DNA of 34,315 nt. Origin: Holophagales bacterium UBA2201. Lineage in GTDB: Bacteria > Acidobacteriota > Thermoanaerobaculia > UBA2201. Position numbers and translations under genes: made by a program. The stretch covers positions 47,030 to 81,344 of the forward strand of contig DCUZ01000019.1 of the NCBI GenBank assembly GCA_002327305.1. Reading direction: 5' to 3'. Under the pieces are notes generated by a model. The model ran no database searches and was not told where the DNA came from. It saw only the letters and a program-made list of their open reading frames with translations. This document shows, piece by piece, positions 14,205 through 24,799 of the stretch. Positions within the stretch are counted from its first letter, which is position 1. Every line of letters starts with the position of its first letter.

Positions 14205-15368
14205 ATGGAAGTGTATCTGGACCTGGAAAACGCCACCCCCCTGCCGGAGCCCGTCCTCAAGGCGATGCTCCCCTATTTCGGCGCCCGCGCCTACGGCCAC
14301 TCGGCGCTGACCCACCGGATCGGATGGGAGGCCTACGCCGCCGTGGAGGAGTCGCTCGGGCGTCTGGCCCTGGCCCTCGGCGTCCCGCCCGAGGACCTGG
14401 CGCTGACCCACGACGCCGTCGAGGCCGCCAACCTCGCCTTCGAGGGGCTGATCCTGGGACGGCCGATCAAGCGGAAAACGGTGGTCCTCTCGTCCATCGA
14501 GCCGCTGAACATCCTGTACGCGGCGGAGAACCTGGAGCGGCACGGCTTCCGCGTCGTGAAGGTCCCCGTGGACGGCGAGGGGTTCGTCCGGGAGGACGCC
14601 CTGGCCGAGGCCTGCACGGAGGACACCCACAGCGTCGCCGTCTCCTGGGTCAGCCACGAGATCGGGACGATCCAGCGCCTCGACCGCCTCTCCGCCATCG
14701 TGAGGGAACGGGCCCCCGAGGCCTACTTCATCTCCGACCTCTCCGACGCCTTCGGCCGCCTCGCCTTCGAGGGGTCGGCCCTGCCCATCGACATCGGCCT
14801 GGTCACCTCCTACAAGGTCTTCGGCCCCCGGGGCGCCGCGGCCCTCTTCAAGGGCAAGCGGGCCAAATTGAAACCCCTCCTCGCCGGCCCCTACAGCACC
14901 CAGCCGCTGTGGCCGGGCGACGAGAACCTCCCCCTCCTGGTGGGTTTCGCCGAGGCCGCTGAACGGGCGATGGCGGAGCTGAGCGCCCGGACGGCCCACA
15001 TGCGCCGCCTGCGCGACCGGCTCGTCGAAGGACTCCTGGCCATCCCGCACACGATGCTGAACGGCCCACGGACGGAACGGGCCCCCGACAACGCCAACAT
15101 CTCCTTTCTCGGAGCCGAGGGGGAGGCCATCACGGTGGAGTGCTCCGACCATGGGGTCTACGTTTCCTCGGGCTCGGCCTGCACCCGCCGGATGCTCCAG
15201 CCCAGCCATGTCCTCCTCGCCATCGGCCGGAAGTACGAGGCGGCCCACGGCTCCATCCTGATGAAGATCTCCCCCTTCCACACCGACGCCGACATCGACC
15301 ACGTCCTGAAAATCTTCCCGGAGGCCATCGAGCGCCTGCGGAAACTTTCCGGCTTCAAGGAGGCATAG
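14205..15368 (+). CDS. class I (NifS/IscS-like) cysteine desulfurase homolog with an atypical PLP motif
   Basis: Active-site loop SSGSACT is present, but the PLP lysine context is TSYKVFGP (Tyr in place of the usual SGHK His). Confidence 0.8.
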   Translation: MEVYLDLENATPLPEPVLKAMLPYFGARAYGHSALTHRIGWEAYAAVEESLGRLALALGVPPEDLALTHDAVEAANLAFEGLILGRPIKRKTVVLSSIEPLNILYAAENLERHGFRVVKVPVDGEGFVREDALAEACTEDTHSVAVSWVSHEIGTIQRLDRLSAIVRERAPEAYFISDLSDAFGRLAFEGSALPIDIGLVTSYKVFGPRGAAALFKGKRAKLKPLLAGPYSTQPLWPGDENLPLLVGFAEAAERAMAELSARTAHMRRLRDRLVEGLLAIPHTMLNGPRTERAPDNANISFLGAEGEAITVECSDHGVYVSSGSACTRRMLQPSHVLLAIGRKYEAAHGSILMKISPFHTDADIDHVLKIFPEAIERLRKLSGFKEA

Positions 15369-15374
15369 AACGGC

Positions 15375-15860
15375 ATGTCCCGCACCCCCCTGCCCTACAG
15401 CAAGGTCCTCCTGGACCACTTCCGCAACCCCCGCAACCAGGGGCCCATGGAGGCGGCCGACGTCGTCGCCAAGGCCGGCAGCCCCGCCTGCGGCGACATG
15501 ATCACCTTCTACCTCAAGGTCGCCGGCGACGCGGTGGAGCGCATCTCGTTCGAGAGCTACGGGTGCGCCGCCAACATCGGCACCGCTTCGTACCTGACGG
15601 AACTGGTGGCCGGCCGGCCGCTGGAGGAGGCGTGGAAGGTCTCCTGGAAGCGCCTCTCCGACGACCTGGGCGGCCTCCCCAAGGTGAAGTTCCACTGCGG
15701 CATCCTGGCCGTGGGGGCCCTCCAGCGGGCCATCCGTGAGTACTACCGCGCCCGCGGCGCCGTCCCGGCCTGGATACCCCCGGACCTGACGGAGGAGGAG
15801 AAGAACGCCCAGGAAGAGGAAGAGCTGGCCTGCTCCATCGAGCACAAGCTCCACCCATGA
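15375..15860 (+). CDS. NifU/IscU-like Fe-S scaffold protein with acidic C-terminal extension
   Basis: The three scaffold cysteines are GSPACGD, YGCAAN and FHCGI. Confidence 0.8.
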   Translation: MSRTPLPYSKVLLDHFRNPRNQGPMEAADVVAKAGSPACGDMITFYLKVAGDAVERISFESYGCAANIGTASYLTELVAGRPLEEAWKVSWKRLSDDLGGLPKVKFHCGILAVGALQRAIREYYRARGAVPAWIPPDLTEEEKNAQEEEELACSIEHKLHP

Positions 15861-17083
15861 CCATGGACATCGCCGCCGTCCGCGCCGACTTCCCCATCCT
15901 CGCCCGCACCGTCAACGGAAAGCCCCTGGCCTACCTCGACAACGCCGCCACCTCGCAGAAGCCGCGGCAGGTCCTGGAGGCGGTGGACCGCTACTACCGC
16001 CAGAACAACGCCAACGTCCACCGCGGCGTCCACACGCTGGCCTCCGAGTCCACCGTCCTTTACGAAGAGGCCCACCAAAAGGCCGCCGCATTCCTCAATG
16101 CCCGCTCCTGGCAGGAGATCATCTTCGTCCGCAACACCACCGAGGCCCTCAACCTGGCCGCCACGGCCCTCGCCCTGGGGCACCTGAAACCCGGCGACGA
16201 GGTCCTGATCACACGGGTGGACCACCACTCCAACATCATCCCCTGGTTCCTTCTCAAGGAGCGGTTCGGCATCCTGACGAGGATGGTGGACGCCCTCCCC
16301 GACGGAACCCTCGACCTCGAGGATTTCAAGGCCAAACTGGCGGGACGCCCGAAAGTGGTGGCCATGACCCACGTCTCCAATGTCACCGGTTGGATCTCCC
16401 CCCTGGAGCGCCTGATCCCCCTGGCCCACGAGGCCGGGGCCCTCGTCGTGGTGGACGGGGCGCAGGCGGTGCCGCACTTCCCCGTGGACGTGCAGGCCCT
16501 CGACGCCGACTTCTACGCCTTCTCCGGCCACAAGGTGCTGGCCCCCATGGGGATCGGGGTCCTTTACGGCAAGCGGGAGCTGTTGACCCGGCTCCCACCC
16601 TTCCTGGGCGGCGGCGACATGCTGGAGACCGTCTGCGTGGTGGGGGGGGTCTGCTCCCTCTGCCTCAAGGCCCTGCCGTGGAAATACGAGGCGGGGACCG
16701 CCAATGTGGACGGGGCGGTGGGGCTCACCGCCGCCATCGATTATCTGGCCGGCCTTGGCTGGGACGCCGTCCGGCCCCACGAGGAATCCCTGTTCCGCCG
16801 GACGGTGGAGGGGATGCGCCGGATGAAGCACGTCCGCCTCATCGGGCCGGAGGACCTGTCGCGGCGGGTGGGGTGCGTCCCCTTCACCGTGGAGGGGCTC
16901 TCCGCCTCCGAGGTGGCCACGGCCCTCGACGGCGAGGGGATCGCCATCCGTTCCGGGTTCCACTGCGCCCAGCCCCTTCACGAACGCCTCGGCCTTTCGT
17001 CCAGCGCCCGCATCTCGCTGGCCTTTTACAACACGGAGGCGGAGGTGGACCGCTGCCTGGCCGTCCTGGAATCCCTGGGATGA
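15857..17083 (+). CDS. sufS: SufS/CsdA-type (class II) cysteine desulfurase
   Basis: FSGHKVLAPMGIGVLYGKRELL and RSGFHCAQP motifs. ATGA overlap with the upstream gene. Confidence 0.9.
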   Translation: MTMDIAAVRADFPILARTVNGKPLAYLDNAATSQKPRQVLEAVDRYYRQNNANVHRGVHTLASESTVLYEEAHQKAAAFLNARSWQEIIFVRNTTEALNLAATALALGHLKPGDEVLITRVDHHSNIIPWFLLKERFGILTRMVDALPDGTLDLEDFKAKLAGRPKVVAMTHVSNVTGWISPLERLIPLAHEAGALVVVDGAQAVPHFPVDVQALDADFYAFSGHKVLAPMGIGVLYGKRELLTRLPPFLGGGDMLETVCVVGGVCSLCLKALPWKYEAGTANVDGAVGLTAAIDYLAGLGWDAVRPHEESLFRRTVEGMRRMKHVRLIGPEDLSRRVGCVPFTVEGLSASEVATALDGEGIAIRSGFHCAQPLHERLGLSSSARISLAFYNTEAEVDRCLAVLESLG

Positions 17084-17352
17084 GCTGGCAGAATTACGTC
17101 GGGCACATCGACGACACCTGCGGGCAGGAGAAGGATTTCATCCTCCTCCTCAAGCCGGAGAAAAAAGGGGAGGCGATCGCCCGCATCCGGGCGGTCATGA
17201 CGGTGGATCGCCGGATCGGGGACATCATGCTCCAGGGGACCCTTCTCGGGACGGAAGCCACCTTCTTCTGCAACGGGAAGCTGATCCTGAAGGGGCTGGG
17301 CAGCCGGGAGAACCTGGAACGCTTCCTGGATTCATTGTTCCCGGCTTCTTAG
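17080..17352 (+). CDS. 90-aa hypothetical protein translationally coupled to sufS
   Basis: ATGA overlap. The N-terminus MSWQNYV..C resembles a profilin N-terminus, but the protein is too short for that call. Confidence 0.45.
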   Translation: MSWQNYVGHIDDTCGQEKDFILLLKPEKKGEAIARIRAVMTVDRRIGDIMLQGTLLGTEATFFCNGKLILKGLGSRENLERFLDSLFPAS

Positions 17353-17384: not shown

Positions 17385-17497
17385 CTACTGGTTATTATAT
17401 CCATCTAACATTTATTTGCGCCCCTTTCCGTCAAACACCTTGAACCCGAGGCCCGTATTGTGATATGGTAAGCCGAATTTTATTTAAGGAGAGACCT

Positions 17498-17848
17498 ATG
17501 AAGAGAGCCACCGTGTTGTTCACTTTCCTGGCGTTCATCCTTGTCCTGGCCGGCTCCCTGGCGGCGGCCGACGCCCCGGCCGACATCAAACTCACGGCCA
17601 AGAACGGCGATGTCACGTTCCCCCACAAGGCCCACGCGGAGGCGCTGAAGATCGCCTGCGCCACCTGCCACCACACCACCAAGGAGGGCGAGGCGGTCCA
17701 GAAGTGCTCCGCCTGCCACGGCGTGGACGCCAAGGCCCCCAAGGCGCAGGACGCCTTCCACAAGCAGTGCCAGGGCTGCCACAAGGACGAGAACGCCAAA
17801 AACGCCAAGAAGGCGCCCGTCAAATGCACGGAGTGTCACAAGAAATAG
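17498..17848 (+). CDS. periplasmic tetraheme cytochrome c3 family protein
   Basis: Signal peptide plus four CxxCH motifs (CATCH, CSACH, CQGCH, CTECH) in 116 aa; RBS aaggagag. Confidence 0.85.
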   Translation: MKRATVLFTFLAFILVLAGSLAAADAPADIKLTAKNGDVTFPHKAHAEALKIACATCHHTTKEGEAVQKCSACHGVDAKAPKAQDAFHKQCQGCHKDENAKNAKKAPVKCTECHKK

Positions 17849-17922: not shown

Positions 17923-20900
17923 TCACTTCTGCGCCGGGATGAAGAAGGCGTCGTTGCTGGTGGTCCGATTGTCCACGACGGAAGCGTAGGCGTAGACGCT
18001 GCCGCCCGAGAGGACGGAGACCTCGCCCAGCGCCACCGCATGCGGCGCGGCAATGCCGAGGTCGCTGAAGATGTTGACCTGGAAATTGCCGTGGGCGGGG
18101 ACGGGGTAGGTCTTGAACCCCAGGACCGACCGGTTGGCGTCGTACAGCTTCACCTGCACCTGGGCGCCCTGGCCGGAAACCTCGGTGAACCCCACGTTGC
18201 TCCGGTAGTCGGCGGTGTTGGCCAGTTGGAGCAGAAGGCCCGTCTCGCCGGGGGCGATGAGGTCCGCGGCGGCCCCCCGGGCGGGGATGAACTGCCCGAA
18301 GGTCCCCAGCCCTGCCGTCGAGGTGTAGGTGCGGGAGGTGACGATCAACCCCTGGGATGACTGAAGGTGCAGGGCCCCCGAGGTGTTGCCCGTGACGGAG
18401 GGGAAGAGGGTGGTGAGAATGTCATCGCGGGAGACCAGCTCCCCCTGCCCGATCGTGAGATTGGCGGTGGCGGTGGCGCCGGCGGCCACGTAGGTGAGGG
18501 TGACCGCCTGGGAGGCGAACGGGTTGTAGAGGCGCAAATCGGTGCGCCAGTTGGACCCGTACCCCCCCTGCGTCCGGGCGGCGGCGGCCACCACCTGATG
18601 CGCCTGCCCCTGGACGTCGCCGGCGCGCTGGATGGGGATGAAGATGGGATCGGAGGAGATGTTGTCGGCGACGGAGGCGTAGGCGGCGAACACGGCCCCC
18701 GGCGTGGAAGAGGTCACGACCGCGTAGGCGTCGTCCACGGCGGCCGAAGTGAGGGCGTCCATGACATAGTTCTGCTGGTAGTGCTCGAAGGGGTTGAGGG
18801 TGCGCGACCAGTCCCCGATGTGCGACCCGTCCGCCCGGTGGAAGGAGAATTTGACCTCGACGAAACCGCTCCCCGCATTCACCACCCCCACGTTGGTCCG
18901 GAACCCGGCGTTTTTGGCCAGGTGCAGGAGGATCCCCTCCTCCCCGCTTTTGAGCAGGCGGGAGGAGAGGGTGGCGGGGATGAACTGCCCGTAGGTGCCC
19001 AGGACCCCGCGGTCGTTGTAGGTGCGGGAGGTGATCGCCAGGGGTTGGGTGGAGGTCAGCCACAGGGCCCCCGCCAGGTTGTTGAGGCGGAACATGCTCC
19101 CCACGATGTCCCCCAGCCGGACGAACCGGAACCCCGGCAGGATCACCTCGGACCCGGCGGCGGCGGCGTTGTCCTGCCCGCTGGGGAGGAAGTAGGCGTA
19201 GACCGAGATCTCTGCGCTTCGGGGGTTGTGGACCACCACGTCGGAGAGCCAGTTGGTGTTGTTGGCCCCCTGGGCCTTGGCCGCCGCCGGAAGAAGATAG
19301 GTGTAGGGCTGGGCGGTGGTCAGCGGCGGGACGATGCCGCGTCCGTAGACGATGACCTGCTTGGTGGCGGATGAGGTTCCGAAGGCATTGGAAACCGTCA
19401 GCGTGACGGGGAAGGTGCCGGAGAAAAGATAGGTGTGGACGGGGTTCTGCTCCATCGAGGTGGTCCCGTCACCGAAGTCCCAGGACCAGGCGGTGGGGAC
19501 GAGGGAGGAGGCGTCCACGAACTGAAGGCCGGTGCCGATCTCGGGGCGGCCGGCGAACCAGGCAAAATCGGCCACCGGCGGGGCGTTGAAACCGTAGATC
19601 CAGGCCACCCCCGCGGCGTCATCGGGGTGGGGCGTCCGCTTGTTGCTCGAGGGGCCCGATCCGGCGTAGCCGTACATCACCTTGTCCCGATCGTCGCCAT
19701 CCCCGTAGAGGTCGCGCAGGGTGAGCCAGTGGCCGGTCTCGTGGAGGACGATGGAATGGACGTCAAAGGCCCCGCTGGGCGTGGTTTCGGCGATGCTGTA
19801 GTTGAACTTGGTGTTGAGGACGAGGTCGGCCTCCACCATGTATCCCTGGGCATTGGACCAATAGGTGGCGTAGCCGAGGGTGTTTTCGTAGCCGGGCCCG
19901 AGGTCGGAGGCCATGATCTCGCTCTTTCCATTGTTGCGCAGGTCCCGATTCTCCGTGGTCCCGGCCTGGGTGAACACGATGTTGCCGTGCTGGCCCCAGG
20001 TCCCGGTGGAGGCCGCCACGGTGGCGGTCCAATCGGGGATATTACTTCCGAGGTAATAGGAGATCGTGGGGGGGGCGCCGTTCCATTTCATGCCGCCGTA
20101 GCCGAAGGAGACCTTGTAATCGTACCCCGGCGACTTGGCCCCGGCGCTGTTGGTCACCCAGACGGGACCGGTGGCGGCGGAGCCGGGATACCCGGCCACG
20201 CGCCCGATGGGCACCTGCACCCGGATGACATTGTCGTTCCATTCGGAGATGGTCGAGCCGGTGATGGTGGACTGCCCCTCGAAGGTGAACTGGACGCGGC
20301 TGCTGGTCCCCTTGGTGCCGAACCCCACGCCGCGGATGTAGGCCTCGGTGCCGGTGCCGGCGGAGGCCTTCTCCGGGTGCATCTCCACGATCATGGGGCC
20401 GGTGCCCGGCTGGTCCTCCGCGGGGGGCTCCATCTTCTTGGCGATGAGGGCCCACTCCTTGTTGGACGGATCCATGAAGTCGTCGGGAGCGGCCTGCCCC
20501 TCCCGGTAGGATTCGATGCGGAAATCGTATTCCTGGCGCGCGGAACCGTAGAGATTGAGGATCCGCGCGTCGGTGGAATCGTAGTTGGTGATGACATAGA
20601 GCGGGGTGGTATAAAGGTGGGACCAGGCGGTGGTCCCCGCCAGGCGCCAATAGACCTTGTCGAAGACGGTGATGGAGCCGCTCCCCCCCTTGACGTCGGC
20701 GTCCCACAGGAGGCGGCCGAACTGGATGTACCCGTCGCCGTCATAGTCCACCTCGTAGTCCCAGTTCGCCAAAACCAGATTGGAGGTCAGCGCCCGTCCC
20801 GGCGGGGCGGCGGCGTCCGCCGGCTTCTCGATCCGGGAAGCGTCCAACGGGGAGATGGCGCCCCCCGATTCGACGACGGGGCCGAGCCCCAGAAGGGTCC

Positions 20901-21399
20901 CGTACAGGTCGGCGCCGGGATCCCGCCGGAAGGCCTCCACCGCGTCCATGAACCGTTCGACCGGCACCTCCACCCCCTCGACCCGCACGGAGCCGGCCTC
21001 AATGGGGAACTTCCCCTGGAAACCGCCCATGACGACGCGCCGGGGCCCCTTGAGGAAGAGGACCGCCTCTTCGCCAACCTCGAAAGTGGCCAGGTCGGTG
21101 ACGACCTGCCTCCATTCGCCCACCTCTCCGCCCAGAAGGGTCAGGAGAAGGGTCTCGCCGGGGGCATGGCCCTTGAGGAGGCGGCCGGGGACAAGGGTGA
21201 CGGTGGTGTAGATGTTGCGCCCGTCCCCCTCCTCCACCCACCGGCTCTCCATCGCCTGGACGCGGACGGAGAGGATCAGGTCGGCCTGGCCGACCATCTC
21301 CTCCAGCGGCATCCGCACCACGAGGGCAGGGGCCGCAAGGGAGAGGCCGAGCAGGAGGATGGTAAGGGCGAACCACGGGGAAATCCGATGATAGTGCAT
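17923..21399 (-). CDS. secreted multidomain zinc metalloprotease (HExxH) with IPT/TIG-like and PKD domains and two C-terminal copies of an uncharacterised ~200-aa domain
   Basis: Start ATG 21399 with RBS GGAGG; signal peptide MHYHRISPWFALTILLLGLSLAAPA. HETGHWLTLRD zinc site, WDFGDGTTS...NPVHTY PKD motif. Tandem repeats with SRTY..G.LGT(Y/F)GQFIPA and YASV.DN..S.D.FIP motifs. Confidence 0.85.
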   Translation of the reverse strand: MHYHRISPWFALTILLLGLSLAAPALVVRMPLEEMVGQADLILSVRVQAMESRWVEEGDGRNIYTTVTLVPGRLLKGHAPGETLLLTLLGGEVGEWRQVVTDLATFEVGEEAVLFLKGPRRVVMGGFQGKFPIEAGSVRVEGVEVPVERFMDAVEAFRRDPGADLYGTLLGLGPVVESGGAISPLDASRIEKPADAAAPPGRALTSNLVLANWDYEVDYDGDGYIQFGRLLWDADVKGGSGSITVFDKVYWRLAGTTAWSHLYTTPLYVITNYDSTDARILNLYGSARQEYDFRIESYREGQAAPDDFMDPSNKEWALIAKKMEPPAEDQPGTGPMIVEMHPEKASAGTGTEAYIRGVGFGTKGTSSRVQFTFEGQSTITGSTISEWNDNVIRVQVPIGRVAGYPGSAATGPVWVTNSAGAKSPGYDYKVSFGYGGMKWNGAPPTISYYLGSNIPDWTATVAASTGTWGQHGNIVFTQAGTTENRDLRNNGKSEIMASDLGPGYENTLGYATYWSNAQGYMVEADLVLNTKFNYSIAETTPSGAFDVHSIVLHETGHWLTLRDLYGDGDDRDKVMYGYAGSGPSSNKRTPHPDDAAGVAWIYGFNAPPVADFAWFAGRPEIGTGLQFVDASSLVPTAWSWDFGDGTTSMEQNPVHTYLFSGTFPVTLTVSNAFGTSSATKQVIVYGRGIVPPLTTAQPYTYLLPAAAKAQGANNTNWLSDVVVHNPRSAEISVYAYFLPSGQDNAAAAGSEVILPGFRFVRLGDIVGSMFRLNNLAGALWLTSTQPLAITSRTYNDRGVLGTYGQFIPATLSSRLLKSGEEGILLHLAKNAGFRTNVGVVNAGSGFVEVKFSFHRADGSHIGDWSRTLNPFEHYQQNYVMDALTSAAVDDAYAVVTSSTPGAVFAAYASVADNISSDPIFIPIQRAGDVQGQAHQVVAAAARTQGGYGSNWRTDLRLYNPFASQAVTLTYVAAGATATANLTIGQGELVSRDDILTTLFPSVTGNTSGALHLQSSQGLIVTSRTYTSTAGLGTFGQFIPARGAAADLIAPGETGLLLQLANTADYRSNVGFTEVSGQGAQVQVKLYDANRSVLGFKTYPVPAHGNFQVNIFSDLGIAAPHAVALGEVSVLSGGSVYAYASVVDNRTTSNDAFFIPAQK

Positions 21400-21503
21400 T
21401 TTTGCCTCCAAATAGGGTTTACGGATATGGACCATGCCGCATCGCCGGCCTGGGCCTGCATGATAACGCTTTGCGGGTAGAATGATATTTCCTTCCGCCC
21501 TTC

Positions 21504-21534
21504 TTGTCAAATGGCCCCCGCTTTCCGTTACAAT
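21504..21534 (+). promoter_or_regulatory. candidate promoter TTGTCA-N19-TACAAT giving a leaderless or near-leaderless GT4 transcript
   Basis: The -10 ends about 10 nt before GTG 21544. Confidence 0.3.
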
Positions 21535-21543
21535 GGAGGGGCC

Positions 21544-22644
21544 GTGAAGCCCCTCTCCGTCCTTTTCGTCCTCGAATACTATCCCCCGCACATCGGCGGC
21601 GTGGAGACGATGTTCGCCGCCCTGGCGGGGGAACTGGCCCGTCGGGGGCACCGGGTCCGGGTCTTCACGGGGAGCGTCCCGGGGGCGCCGGACCGGGAGA
21701 CGGCCGGAGGGGTGGAGATCGTCCGCGTCCCCCTGGGCCCCTGGCGCCGCTTCCGGTTCACCTTTGGAATGACGCGGCGGCTGTCCCCCCTGGCCCGGGA
21801 GGCCGACCTGGTCCACGCCTCCACCTACTCGGGGACCTGGTCGGCCGTGCATGCGGCGCGGGCGGCGGGACGGCCGGCGGTCGTTTCGGTCCACGAGGTG
21901 TGGCTGGACCTCTGGAAGCGGGTCCCCTTCGTTCCGGCCCTCCAACGCTGGACCGCCCCGTGGCAGGAGCGGTTCCTCCTCCGCCTCCCCTACGACGCCT
22001 ATTCCGCCGTTTCGCGGGCGACGATGGAGCGCCTCCACCCCTTCTCCGGGGGCCGGCCGGTGTTCCATGTCCCCGCGCCGGTGGCCGTCCCGGAGGGGGT
22101 CCGCTGGTCGTCCCCCCCCCCTCCCTTCACCTTCCTGTATTTCGGCCGCCCGGGCCACTGGAGGGGGCTCGATCTGTTGCTGAAGGCCTTCGCCACACGG
22201 CGAGCGGGGGGGTCGGAAGCGCGGCTTGAGCTCATCCTCAGCCCTGAACCCCGGCGCGAGCGGGCCGCCCTGTTGTGCCTGGCGGAGGCGCTGGGGCTCG
22301 GGCCCGCCCTGGCGGTGCGGGAACCCCTTCCCCGCGAGGCCCTGTTCGACCGGCTGGCCTCGGCGCACGCGGCCGTCTTCCCTTCGTTGAGCGAGGGGTT
22401 CGGCCTGGCGGCGGCGGAGGCCTGCGCCCTCGGCGTCCCCGTCGTGGCCTCCGACGCCGGCTCCCTGCCGGAGGTGGTTTCGGGGCGGTGCCTCTTCTTC
22501 CCCGCGGGAGACGCGACGGGCCTGGTCCGCGCCCTGGAACGGGCCGAGCGGGGGGAGTGGGAGGAGCGGCCGCCGGTCCGCTTTCCCTTAAACGCCTCCG
22601 TCGAGGCCCTTCTGGCGATGTATCAAAGTATAATGAAGCCATGA
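21544..22644 (+). CDS. GT4 family glycosyltransferase (GT-B fold)
   Basis: N-terminal EYYPPHIGGVE and C-terminal PSLSEGFGLAAAEACALGVPVV (EX7E). An in-frame alternative ATG at 21511 lies inside the predicted promoter. Confidence 0.8.
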   Translation: MKPLSVLFVLEYYPPHIGGVETMFAALAGELARRGHRVRVFTGSVPGAPDRETAGGVEIVRVPLGPWRRFRFTFGMTRRLSPLAREADLVHASTYSGTWSAVHAARAAGRPAVVSVHEVWLDLWKRVPFVPALQRWTAPWQERFLLRLPYDAYSAVSRATMERLHPFSGGRPVFHVPAPVAVPEGVRWSSPPPPFTFLYFGRPGHWRGLDLLLKAFATRRAGGSEARLELILSPEPRRERAALLCLAEALGLGPALAVREPLPREALFDRLASAHAAVFPSLSEGFGLAAAEACALGVPVVASDAGSLPEVVSGRCLFFPAGDATGLVRALERAERGEWEERPPVRFPLNASVEALLAMYQSIMKP

Positions 22645-23429
22645 GACCCCCGACCGCCCTGCTCCTCCTCCTGCTGGCCGCCTCCCTGTCCGCCCAGGAC
22701 CCCGTGGACAACTGCGAGCGCCTCCGGACCGCCCGGGCCCTCGCCCCCCTCGCCGAAGAGGAGGAGGCCGCGGCGGGCCTCGTCGCCCGGCTGGTGGCGG
22801 ACGCCCTGCACGAGGCGCGCGGGCCCCTTCCCGACGGCACCTACCGGTGGGCCCGCCTGTCGGATAAGGCGGCCGTCACGGTCTCCAAAGGGGTGGAGGT
22901 GGACCGTAAGCAGCTGGAGTGGAAGATGAACGGGACGAACTGGTTCGCCCTCCGCCTCAAGTGCCCCAAGAAGAAGAACCTCTTCTGGGGCAACGCCCCG
23001 GTCATGCTGCGCTCGGTCACCCTCGACGACGGGCAAGGGGCGAGGGTCCTTCTGGCGGACCGCCACCTCGCGCGCGACGAGGAGTTGAAGATCCCCTTCG
23101 GGGCCATCGTGCCCCGCGCCTCCGTCGCCATCGTCTTCGAGCGATACCCCGATTCCGAGCGCGACCCGTACATCGCGGTCGAGGCGCTCCAGGCGGGGTT
23201 GTGGGACGATCCCTCCAATCCCCAGGCGGAGATGCTCAGGCGCCTGGTGGAACTCTCCGGCGCCCGGCCGGGCGGAGGGGATTACGCCGCCCGCCTCGAC
23301 CGCGCCATGGAGGGGTGCGTCCCGCCCGTGCGGCGCGAACTGGAGTACATTCTCTACCTCCTCAAGGGCAACCCGCGCGAGCAGGAGGAGGGACGGAAAC
23401 GGCTGGAGGAGCTCCTGAAGAAGATGTAG
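22641..23429 (+). CDS. secreted hypothetical protein translationally coupled to the glycosyltransferase
   Basis: ATGA overlap. Signal peptide MRPPTALLLLLLAASLSAQD; no recognisable domain. Confidence 0.6.
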   Translation: MRPPTALLLLLLAASLSAQDPVDNCERLRTARALAPLAEEEEAAAGLVARLVADALHEARGPLPDGTYRWARLSDKAAVTVSKGVEVDRKQLEWKMNGTNWFALRLKCPKKKNLFWGNAPVMLRSVTLDDGQGARVLLADRHLARDEELKIPFGAIVPRASVAIVFERYPDSERDPYIAVEALQAGLWDDPSNPQAEMLRRLVELSGARPGGGDYAARLDRAMEGCVPPVRRELEYILYLLKGNPREQEEGRKRLEELLKKM

Positions 23430-23440
23430 GTGCGGAGCGG

Positions 23441-23613
23441 GGTGGCTGATGGTTGAACGAAAATACCGCACCCCCGTCCCCGCTCCGAAATCATAAATCC
23501 GAAATCCGATATTCCATATCGAACGAAAATACCGCACCTTAAAAGGTGCGGCTACATCCCCCTACTTCAACGCTCCAACGGCGCGAGAACCGCGCACCCT
23601 GAAGGGTGCGGCC
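23441..23613. repeat. cluster of related GC-rich hairpins (REP-like) plus terminator
   Basis: gtgcggagcgggg ... ccccgctccg; two copies of gaacgaaaataccgcacc; hairpins ccgcacc-ttaaaa-ggtgcgg and ccgcgcaccc-tgaa-gggtgcggcc. Confidence 0.6.
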
Positions 23614-23731
23614 GCATTCCACCCTCCCAACGCTCCCCTGCGCCGCCCCGTATCGCAGGGTGTGACGACACACAACCCGGGATTGATGATGGATGTCACA
23701 AATCTTGAATGAACGAATTTTGGAGGAATGT

Positions 23732-24799
23732 ATGCGCACTATCATGATCCTTACCGTCGCCCTCTTCAGTACCATCGCGTTCGGCTACGAGCAGATCGTC
23801 CCCGTCGTGGCCAAGACCGGGGGCGCCTACGGCAGCCTATGGCAGTCCGACCTCACCCTCCTCAACGCCGGCAAGAAGGCGGTCGAGGTGACGCTCACCT
23901 TCCAGCCCTCCGGTCAAGCCGGGGGGGCGCAGGTCAAGACTGCGACGCTCCCCCCCGGTGCCGTCTTCGCCGAGTCCGATATCCTCGGCTGGTTCGGCGC
24001 GCAGGGGGCCGGCTTTCTCGCCCTCTCCTATCCCGACGAAGCCCGCACCGCCCTCGGCGTTTCAAGCCGCACCTACACCACCACCGAAGCCGGCACCTTC
24101 GGCCAGGCGGTCCCCGCCGTTCCCGCCGAGGCGGTGACCGCCGCCGGGGCCGAGCTCTTCCTGGTCCTTCCCGGCGGCTCCGCCGACGAGCGGTTCAATT
24201 TCGGCGTCACCACCCTCGGCGACGCGGCGATCGCCTGGCAGCTCCTGGCCCCCGACGGCGCCGTCATCGCGCAGGTGGACAAGACCTACGCCGGGCGCGT
24301 CCAGGAGCAGTACAACGGCGCCGAGGCCTTTTTCAGCGGCGGCGGCGGCCGTCTCGTCAAGGCCGTGCTGACCGAGGGCACGGCCATCGTCTACGGCTCC
24401 CGCGTGGACAACGGCACCAACGACGGGGTCTTCCTCCTCGCGCCGAAACTCCAGTCCAACCAGCCCCCCCTCTTCCTGGGCGTGGACACCACCTCCGACG
24501 GCACCCTCGACTACCGCGACGCCGACGGCGACGGCGTCCTCGACAACGCCATCCCCTTCTCCACCGGTTATCTGTTCAACTATCTGTTCACGATTGCCGC
24601 GCGCGATCCCGAGGGGGACCCCCTCACCTTCCGCCTCGTCAACCCGCCCGCCGGGATGATGCTGACCGACGAGCGCGCCGGGACGGTCTACTACGCCCCG
24701 TCCACGCAGGACGCCAACAAGACCCTTCAACTGAACGTGGAGATCACCGACGGCTTCGCCGTCACCCTCGCCAGGATCCCGATCCTCGTCACTCCCTGA
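23732..24799 (+). CDS. secreted protein carrying one copy of the ~200-aa uncharacterised domain plus a C-terminal Ig/cadherin-like region
   Basis: RBS tggagga; signal peptide. VAKTGGAYGSLWQSDLTLLNAG...SSRTYTTTEAGTFGQAVPAV...YGSRVDNGTNDGVFLLAP is colinear with the protease C-terminal repeats. Confidence 0.75.
   Translation: MRTIMILTVALFSTIAFGYEQIVPVVAKTGGAYGSLWQSDLTLLNAGKKAVEVTLTFQPSGQAGGAQVKTATLPPGAVFAESDILGWFGAQGAGFLALSYPDEARTALGVSSRTYTTTEAGTFGQAVPAVPAEAVTAAGAELFLVLPGGSADERFNFGVTTLGDAAIAWQLLAPDGAVIAQVDKTYAGRVQEQYNGAEAFFSGGGGRLVKAVLTEGTAIVYGSRVDNGTNDGVFLLAPKLQSNQPPLFLGVDTTSDGTLDYRDADGDGVLDNAIPFSTGYLFNYLFTIAARDPEGDPLTFRLVNPPAGMMLTDERAGTVYYAPSTQDANKTLQLNVEITDGFAVTLARIPILVTP

Follow-up and report, generated by a model that had tools for sequence, protein, structure and literature searches.

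What is the repeated, unassigned domain that two secreted proteins share in a 34,315-nucleotide stretch of DNA from Holophagales bacterium UBA2201 (contig DCUZ01000019.1, positions 47,030 to 81,344; hereafter the window)? Two tandem copies end a multidomain metalloprotease, and a third follows the signal peptide of a 355-residue protein encoded nearby. Our analysis indicates that each copy, a unit of about 225 residues, is very probably an internal duplication of two eight-stranded beta-sandwiches with the TM1070/ASRT fold, that is, a dyad of the ASRAH superfamily. We judge this identity well supported, counting the repeat, the internal duplication, the family size and the architecture among the established results, together with the fold, for which the evidence is a predicted structure. 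The unit adds neither a new fold nor a new kind of system; it is a new and very large family, and a new architecture, of a known superfamily.

The three copies, delimited by the envelopes of hidden Markov model matches, and their halves lie as follows.

18622-19302, minus strand: repeat unit 1, protease residues 700-926, modelled as a dyad of ASRT-like beta-sandwiches
18973-19302 and 18622-18972, minus strand: N-half (residues 700-809) and C-half (residues 810-926) of unit 1
17926-18609, minus strand: repeat unit 2, protease residues 931-1158, ending the protein (...FFIPAQK, then the stop codon)
18280-18609 and 17926-18279, minus strand: N-half (residues 931-1040) and C-half (residues 1041-1158) of unit 2
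23777-24481, plus strand: repeat unit 3, residues 16-250 of the 355-residue protein, a single dyad
23777-24118 and 24119-24481, plus strand: N-half and C-half of unit 3

Pairwise BLASTP confirmed the three colinear copies that an earlier note on this DNA had described, at E values from 1e-30 to 1e-15. Units 1 and 2 share 33% identity over 223 residues (E 1e-30), units 1 and 3 share 27% (E 1e-15) and units 2 and 3 share 33% (E 4e-17). The three-way alignment contains 36 invariant columns and every motif previously picked out (G.YGS.W.TDL...N, SRTY...GTFGQ.IPA and YASVVDN...ND.F.IPA). The copy boundaries proposed earlier were otherwise right, but copy 1 begins about 30 residues further upstream, at residue 700 of the protease rather than near 730. 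A search of the window's six-frame translation with the three-copy profile yielded no fourth copy.

With 79 sequences as input, AlphaFold2 modelled unit 2 at a mean predicted local distance difference test score (pLDDT) of 95.7 and a predicted TM-score (pTM) of 0.89, and the model comprised two blocks of eight strands. In a Foldseek comparison of the unit model with the PDB, the sole listed match with a probability of 1.00 was 1nc7 (TM1070), at a target-normalised TM-score of 0.69-0.74; the top-ranked matches, to a transglutaminase, GH2 and vicilins, were dismissed on account of TM-scores no higher than 0.25. Furthermore, the N-half and C-half profiles matched each other in hhalign (E 2e-6 and 1e-5, probability 78-82%), pairing W-R-T-D with F-R-T-N and S-R-T-Y-N...G-Q-F-I-P-A with S-V-V-D-N...F-I-P-A. 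The match between the half profiles thus identifies the supposed single domain of about 200 residues as a dyad of two homologous sandwiches, and the unit, at 8+8 strands in the model, is two domains rather than one. A 469-residue model of both protease units, with a pLDDT of 96.2 and a pTM of 0.93, showed 8+8 strands for unit 1 as well, and the two units are predicted to form one rigid four-sandwich body, a tetrad.

Relatives of the window proteins supplied matches to curated sequence models. Five family members passed the 26.2-bit cut-off of DUF5719 (PF18986), namely P0104 (30.9 bits), P0251 (30.2), P0256 (31.1), P0036 (27.4) and P0217 (26.8), and P0315 passed the 25-bit cut-off of ASRT (PF07100) with 27.6 bits, inside the C-half of its first unit. 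All of these threshold-passing matches fall inside units. At E < 0.1, DUF5719 matched 11 of 79 family members and ASRT matched 5 of the 79; the DUF5719 matches map to profile regions ~59-135 and ~177-309, within the unit.

The ASRAH superfamily was defined from ASRT and TM1070, which are both tetramers, by De Souza, Iyer and Aravind in 2009 (PMC2739507). Its three families were cytoplasmic proteins with a solo domain, amidases secreted by Chloroflexi that carry four repeats, and an actinobacterial lipoprotein that carries two; the extracellular versions were always dyads or tetrads (PMC2739507). Strand 2 of the domain lines a cleft, bears family-specific residues and is closed by an Asn, and sugar binding was predicted from context (PMC2739507). 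The earlier note could not assign the repeat to a known family. That holds for curated sequence models, none of which names the unit, but not for structure, which is that of a TM1070/ASRT (ASRAH) dyad; at superfamily level the repeat thereby falls into a named group already predicted to bind carbohydrate (PMC2739507), an outcome that the note itself had listed as refuting its reading.

The resemblance extends beyond the overall fold. In the predicted structure, the unit consists of eight-stranded sandwiches of the TM1070 fold; the units are dyads, the protease pair is a tetrad predicted to be rigid, and most top relatives carry two units. N29 (unit numbering), conserved at 93%, ends the strand formed by residues 20-28 of the N-half, as the strand-2 Asn of ASRAH domains does, whereas at the equivalent position of the C-half Asn is only the majority residue, replaced by Glu in unit 2. 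W21 (95%) follows a polar residue, as the strand-1 Trp of ASRAH domains does, but it opens the second model strand and not the first, which carries A11 and a majority His instead; W21 is at most a candidate equivalent of that Trp. The founding members are nonetheless distant. ASRT and TM1070 (1NC7, 2II7, PF07100) are cytoplasmic homotetramers of single domains of ~115 residues, in contrast to the four fused sandwiches that are secreted and attached to an enzyme here. Identity of the units to ASRT/TM1070 is 6-11%, and the units lack the H and C that the ASRT family has in its cleft.

DUF5719 is presumably the actinobacterial dyad lipoprotein of the three-family scheme, an equivalence that we assume from the matching description of PF18986. 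Both it and the window units are secreted dyads of ASRAH-like sandwiches, although the window copies do not match PF18986 itself. The study that defined the superfamily linked the actinobacterial protein to a glycosyltransferase and to a zincin-like peptidase described as inactive (PMC2739507). In the window, the fused zincin keeps its HExxH motif, unlike the inactive actinobacterial neighbour, and an adjacent gene encodes a GT4 glycosyltransferase; this echoes the actinobacterial trio of glycosyltransferase, zincin and ASRAH protein, and we did not count the echo as evidence. Further differences are the window N-termini, MHYHRISPWFALTILLLGLSLAAPALVV in the protease and MRTIMILTVALFSTIAFG in the 355-residue protein, which lack a lipobox cysteine; the gene calls around the locus, which include no WhiB-like neighbour; the taxon; and the tandem-pair cassette with its promiscuous fusion to hundreds of cargo types. 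The Chloroflexi N-acetylmuramoyl-L-alanine amidases, compared by description only, carry four ASRAH repeats on a secreted hydrolase, as does the protease with its tetrad, and their repeats were interpreted as binding cell-wall glycan (PMC2739507). They differ in enzyme partner, phylum and sequence family.

How widespread is the unit? From 1.84 billion cluster representatives (50% identity), the three-copy profile retrieved 7,612 at E <= 1e-3, of which 2,078 remained at E <= 1e-30. In a word-seeded search, all names were "hypothetical protein", with organism labels that included Thermoanaerobaculales, Acidobacteria and bacterium HR09. We also scanned one genome per GTDB species with narrow patterns derived from the three window copies and listed the best 80 of 399 matching stretches. 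All of these 80 come from Acidobacteriota, chiefly from Thermoanaerobaculia and in some cases from Holophagae. The closest listed match, at 70% identity, lies in a Holophagales metagenome-assembled genome, on a contig that keeps the order protease, cytochrome c3, SufS, NifU, NifS. The unit family would thus be a fourth, and probably the largest, ASRAH family in a superfamily otherwise known from three small ones, and building a family model for its annotation is justified.

In the genome loci, most open reading frames bearing the domain encode proteins of 600-2,900 residues that finish with two adjacent units, and 80 of the 92 end no more than 12 residues past the last unit, mostly at ...[FY][VI]PAQ(K). 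Of the 149 best representatives, 99 have their units at the C-terminus, 21 at the N-terminus and 29 at internal positions; apart from three, each has exactly two units. Single-unit proteins also occur, in the forms signal peptide plus unit, unit plus cupredoxin and PKD plus unit. When each of 242 units was compared with its closest counterpart in a different protein, the two held the same position in 215 cases; first and second units are position-specific subtypes, and the pair therefore moves as a cassette. Upstream of it stand DUF11, Ig_7, Ig_3, P-domain, BACON_2, CARDB, PKD, LVIVD and FGE-sulfatase domains, all of them extracellular partner types. The hosts of the tandem pair are usually big secreted proteins such as proteases, beta-propellers, FGE-sulfatase-like enzymes and Ig/PKD/DUF11 arrays. 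Signal peptides and partner domains indicate that the module is extracellular and fused promiscuously to many cargo types, so that the earlier idea of a genuine, repeated and mobile extracellular module is borne out.

Client genes tend to cluster: 13 of 79 genome loci hold two separate module genes within ~16 kb (L014, L016, L017, L024, L035, L040, L049, L052, L054, L065, L066, L070 and L078). A subfamily of ~700-715 residues (P0182, P0144, P0256, P0277, P0290 and many others) has its signal peptide joined directly to the pair and, behind the pair, a C-terminal region of ~250 residues that in nearly all members has no recorded Pfam family; one member is encoded on the complete 5.9-Mb Thermoanaerobaculia chromosome OY970380.1.

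The C-terminal bias raises the alternative that the pair is not a ligand binder but a sorting or attachment domain read by a lineage-specific export or surface-attachment machinery. Cargo of the type IX secretion system (T9SS), for example, is recognised through a domain at its C-terminus. In about two thirds of the proteins the pair is the last element, and these proteins end 1-3 residues from the conserved ...[FY][VI]PAQ(K), and the cargo (DUF11, CARDB, CHU_C-associated Ig_7, P-domain, BACON, PKD and proteases) resembles that of T9SS and PEP-CTERM; the thousands of paralogues and the two-gene loci would fit as well. However, the units are N-terminal or internal in about one third of the top representatives, the unit of the 355-residue protein immediately follows the signal peptide, and some single-unit proteins stand alone. 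At 450 residues the pair is also far larger than known sorting domains, it matched no sorting-domain model in NCBIfam, and the neighbourhoods examined contain no conserved machinery. We consider sorting improbable on balance.

The partners bear equally on whether the unit merely serves the protease, either as a PPC-like domain or as an intramolecular chaperone or inhibitor of the HExxH domain. The presence of two copies on a protease is what suggests this role. In the 48 upstream regions scanned, M10 proteases occurred in 7, M36 in 4 and S8 in 4, and the majority of partners belong to other classes; the module is also met on its own, next to cupredoxins and in the protease-free 355-residue protein. 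Neither PPC (PF04151) nor any other C-terminal protease or sorting model of Pfam or NCBIfam matched residues 700-1158 of the protease at E <= 1, and the match to TM1070 is far stronger than that to any protease-associated domain. The architecture survey thus largely refutes a protease-accessory role, to which we assign almost no probability.

What, then, would the unit do? Strand 2 conserves R, T and D/N at more than 90% in both halves, and about 25 polar or glycine positions, including R93, Q106, R136, N138, D213 and D220, are conserved at 80-100% in a family that averages ~35% identity. A binding or adhesion role, as the earlier note suggested, appears to be the most reasonable reading. The module would be non-catalytic and would bind a ligand through these family-specific conserved polar residues, with candidate binding residues on strand 2 (W-R-T-D / F-R-T-N) and on strand 7 and the loop that follows it (S-R-T-Y...G-T-x-G-Q / S-V-V-D-N...G-D). 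The ligand would most probably be a glycan of the cell envelope, the matrix or the substrate, and binding may hold or target the attached enzyme, here the metzincin-like protease, at the cell surface. That the module is a non-catalytic, most likely glycan-binding device that retains or targets its cargo has, in our estimate, a little less than an even chance, since ligand binding, glycan specificity and anchoring are each what we infer. For the explanation as a whole, identity and mechanism together, we see the balance as even.

Such docking would have a functional analogue in SLH and CWB2 domains, fixed tandem repeats that form a pseudo-symmetric body at either terminus and dock the surface proteins of one lineage on an envelope glycan. 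The folds are unrelated, and anchoring by an ASRAH tetrad is proposed here by functional analogy.

A purely structural alternative would make the tetrad a scaffold for oligomerisation, a rigid pseudo-tetrameric base or spacer that perhaps takes part in surface-layer self-assembly and has no specific small ligand. Consistent with this, TM1070 and ASRT are tetramers and the extracellular ASRAH proteins are dyads or tetrads (PMC2739507), the protease tetrad is predicted as a single rigid body (pTM 0.93), and single-dyad proteins such as the 355-residue one could pair. The ~25 positions conserved at 80-100% nevertheless exceed what a packing scaffold usually needs, and the conserved polar positions map to the cleft-lining strand of TM1070 (PMC2739507). 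We hold this scaffold role to be unlikely.

Several observations weigh against identifying the unit as a glycan-binding ASRAH dyad. We know of no ASRAH domain with demonstrated sugar binding, ASRT being the sole member with biochemistry. ASRT was reported to bind and loop DNA (PMC8660804), and by analogy the module might be an extracellular nucleic-acid binder that tethers enzymes to biofilm-matrix DNA, with several arginines among its conserved residues. Identity to ASRT is, however, ~10%, the conserved residues are family-specific, the superfamily authors argued for sugars in the extracellular versions (PMC2739507) and nothing in the context points to DNA, all of which makes DNA binding very improbable. 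The family members examined have no conserved glycan-synthesis neighbourhood.

At the sequence level, searches of Pfam and NCBIfam with the window copies returned nothing at E <= 1, neither ASRT nor DUF5719, and the isolated halves matched neither Pfam nor PDB sequences, so that even the weak DUF5719/ASRT signal was lost. PDB sequence-profile searches gave no meaningful match, whether they started from the whole-protein alignment (A2) or from either half. Because the window copies and their halves lack such matches, superfamily membership rests on predicted structure and on the minority of relatives that pass thresholds. The same silence in Pfam, NCBIfam and PDB profiles would be expected of a domain unrelated to any known family or fold; structure comparison contradicts that view, and we give it hardly any credence. 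A C-half match to a phage short tail fibre (PDB 9zd7, RxNLGL repeat, E 0.05) was judged a coincidence of short motifs. It lies at C-half profile positions 16-39 (unit ~125-145), where L..L.....(F/Y)R(T/S)N(I/L)G resembles the repeated ...aaRaNLGL of the tail fibre.

Returning to the ASRAH dyad as a putative glycan-binding module, one may ask what the pair means for its lineage. We tentatively raise a possibility that we regard as distinctly less probable than the mechanism itself, namely that the C-terminal pair of dyads is the hallmark of an undescribed Acidobacteriota surface-display system, either as a rigid pseudo-tetrameric dock, the functional counterpart of SLH/CWB2, that would fix hundreds of different secreted enzymes and adhesins to a glycan of the envelope or matrix, or as a domain recognised by a dedicated attachment machinery. 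If so, the window protease and the 355-residue protein would be two of its clients. Thermoanaerobaculia and Holophagae are abundant and mostly uncultured in soil and sediment, and most annotations of their secreted proteins read "hypothetical". Thousands of their large extracellular proteins bear this one cassette, and the fused ASRT-like tetrad is a defined, testable module through which the glycan binding predicted in 2009 for extracellular ASRAH domains could be examined by experiment.

How are the two host proteins built? The protease has the following annotated features.

17923-21399, minus strand: gene for the secreted multidomain metalloprotease of 1158 residues, stop codon included
20125-20397, minus strand: IPT/TIG domain, protease residues 335-425 (PF01833, 25.1 bits, cut-off 20.9)
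19591-19953, minus strand: metzincin-like catalytic region, protease residues 483-603 (Peptidase_M10, 20.4 bits, below the 24-bit cut-off)
19348-19587, minus strand: PKD domain, protease residues 605-684 (PF18911, E 2.5e-15; PF00801, E 3.8e-12)

The protein starts with MHYHRISPW at 21399, preceded by GGAGG, and gene callers predicted the same 1158-residue protease on four independent metagenome contigs. A 1481-residue open reading frame on the minus strand (17923-22368) was rejected as the protease: it reads through upstream, and its upstream third overlaps the GT4 gene. Long antisense open reading frames of hundreds of codons lie opposite real genes in many stretches, for example at 21400-22368 on the minus strand, and are artefacts of the 67% G+C content.

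In order, the protease comprises a signal peptide, an unassigned N-terminal region, the TIG domain, the HExxH catalytic domain, the PKD domain and the two repeat units. Its N-terminus, MHYHRISPWFALTILLLGLSLAAPALVV, is signal-peptide-like and contains no cysteine. HETGHWLTLRD occupies residues 553-563 (HETGH at 553-557), and VMYGY downstream is a possible Met-turn. NCBIfam returned only sub-threshold matches on the protease, weak metalloprotease ones among them, and none on the repeats. The first ~120-150 residues after the signal peptide (residues ~30-165; 20905-21312, minus strand) have no family assignment and weakly match, at E 2e-4 to 7e-4, the N-termini of large tandem-pair proteins in loci L035, L040 and L066; on this sequence similarity, the region may be a shared N-terminal domain, perhaps a prodomain, of large tandem-pair surface proteins. 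Residues 211-310 (20470-20769, minus strand) match 'choice-of-anchor H' (NF038116) at 44.3 bits, below the cut-off of 53.

The second host is encoded by a single feature.

23732-24799, plus strand: gene for the 355-residue secreted protein, starting MRTIMIL with GGAGG ahead

Its signal peptide, MRTIMILTVALFSTIAFG, is followed by one repeat unit, an Asp-rich linker and a C-terminal Ig/cadherin-like region; this N-terminus is likewise signal-peptide-like and free of cysteine. The Ig-like call for the C-terminal region depends on faint, sub-threshold matches to Big_9 and Cadherin_5. Accordingly, of the modules that the earlier note joined to the repeats, TIG, HExxH and PKD are present in the protease, whereas the Ig-like one relies on these sub-threshold matches.

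Does the neighbourhood add to the argument? Two genes separate the hosts.

21544-22644 (alternative start 21511), plus strand: GT4 glycosyltransferase, divergent from the protease (Pfam Glyco_transf_4 and Glycos_transf_1; gene calls)
22641-23429, plus strand: 262-residue secreted protein with a signal-peptide-like N-terminus, its start overlapping the GT4 stop by 4 nucleotides

The GT4 glycosyltransferase and the coupled secreted protein were correctly placed between the two hosts: Pfam and the gene calls support the GT4, and the 4-nucleotide ATGA overlap couples the 262-residue protein translationally to the GT4 gene. The 262-residue protein has no Pfam or NCBIfam match and only 13 homologues, all in the same lineage context, and in every locus examined it lies between a GT4 gene, whole or truncated where the contig stops, and an orthologue of the 355-residue dyad protein. 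The block of protease and divergent GT4, 262-residue and 355-residue genes recurs in relatives whose 262-residue protein is 47-72% identical, and these relatives also share the flanking ispG, rseP, dxr, cdsA and uppS. Because such close relatives also share flanking housekeeping genes, the block reflects lineage synteny and not independent linkage. The ~5 kb upstream of one protease orthologue contained no match to the window GT4, and the neighbourhoods of three other family members were heterogeneous, with no common theme. We rejected a conserved functional cluster of GT4, the 262-residue protein and the dyad proteins, as the synteny is confined to close relatives; GT4 and the 262-residue protein are context, not part of the module, and the functional argument that the earlier note built on them is weak.

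On the other side of the protease, a cluster at 14205-17352 on the plus strand encodes a NifS-like cysteine desulfurase, a NifU-like scaffold and a SufS-like desulfurase. It is followed by a 90-residue open reading frame that has no family match and was called in two contigs. Between this cluster and the protease, 17465-17848 on the plus strand encodes a small, secreted tetrahaem cytochrome c3/c7 with four CxxCH motifs (Pfam Cytochrom_CIII). Its gene is convergent with that of the protease and stays beside it in the related loci L007 and L094.

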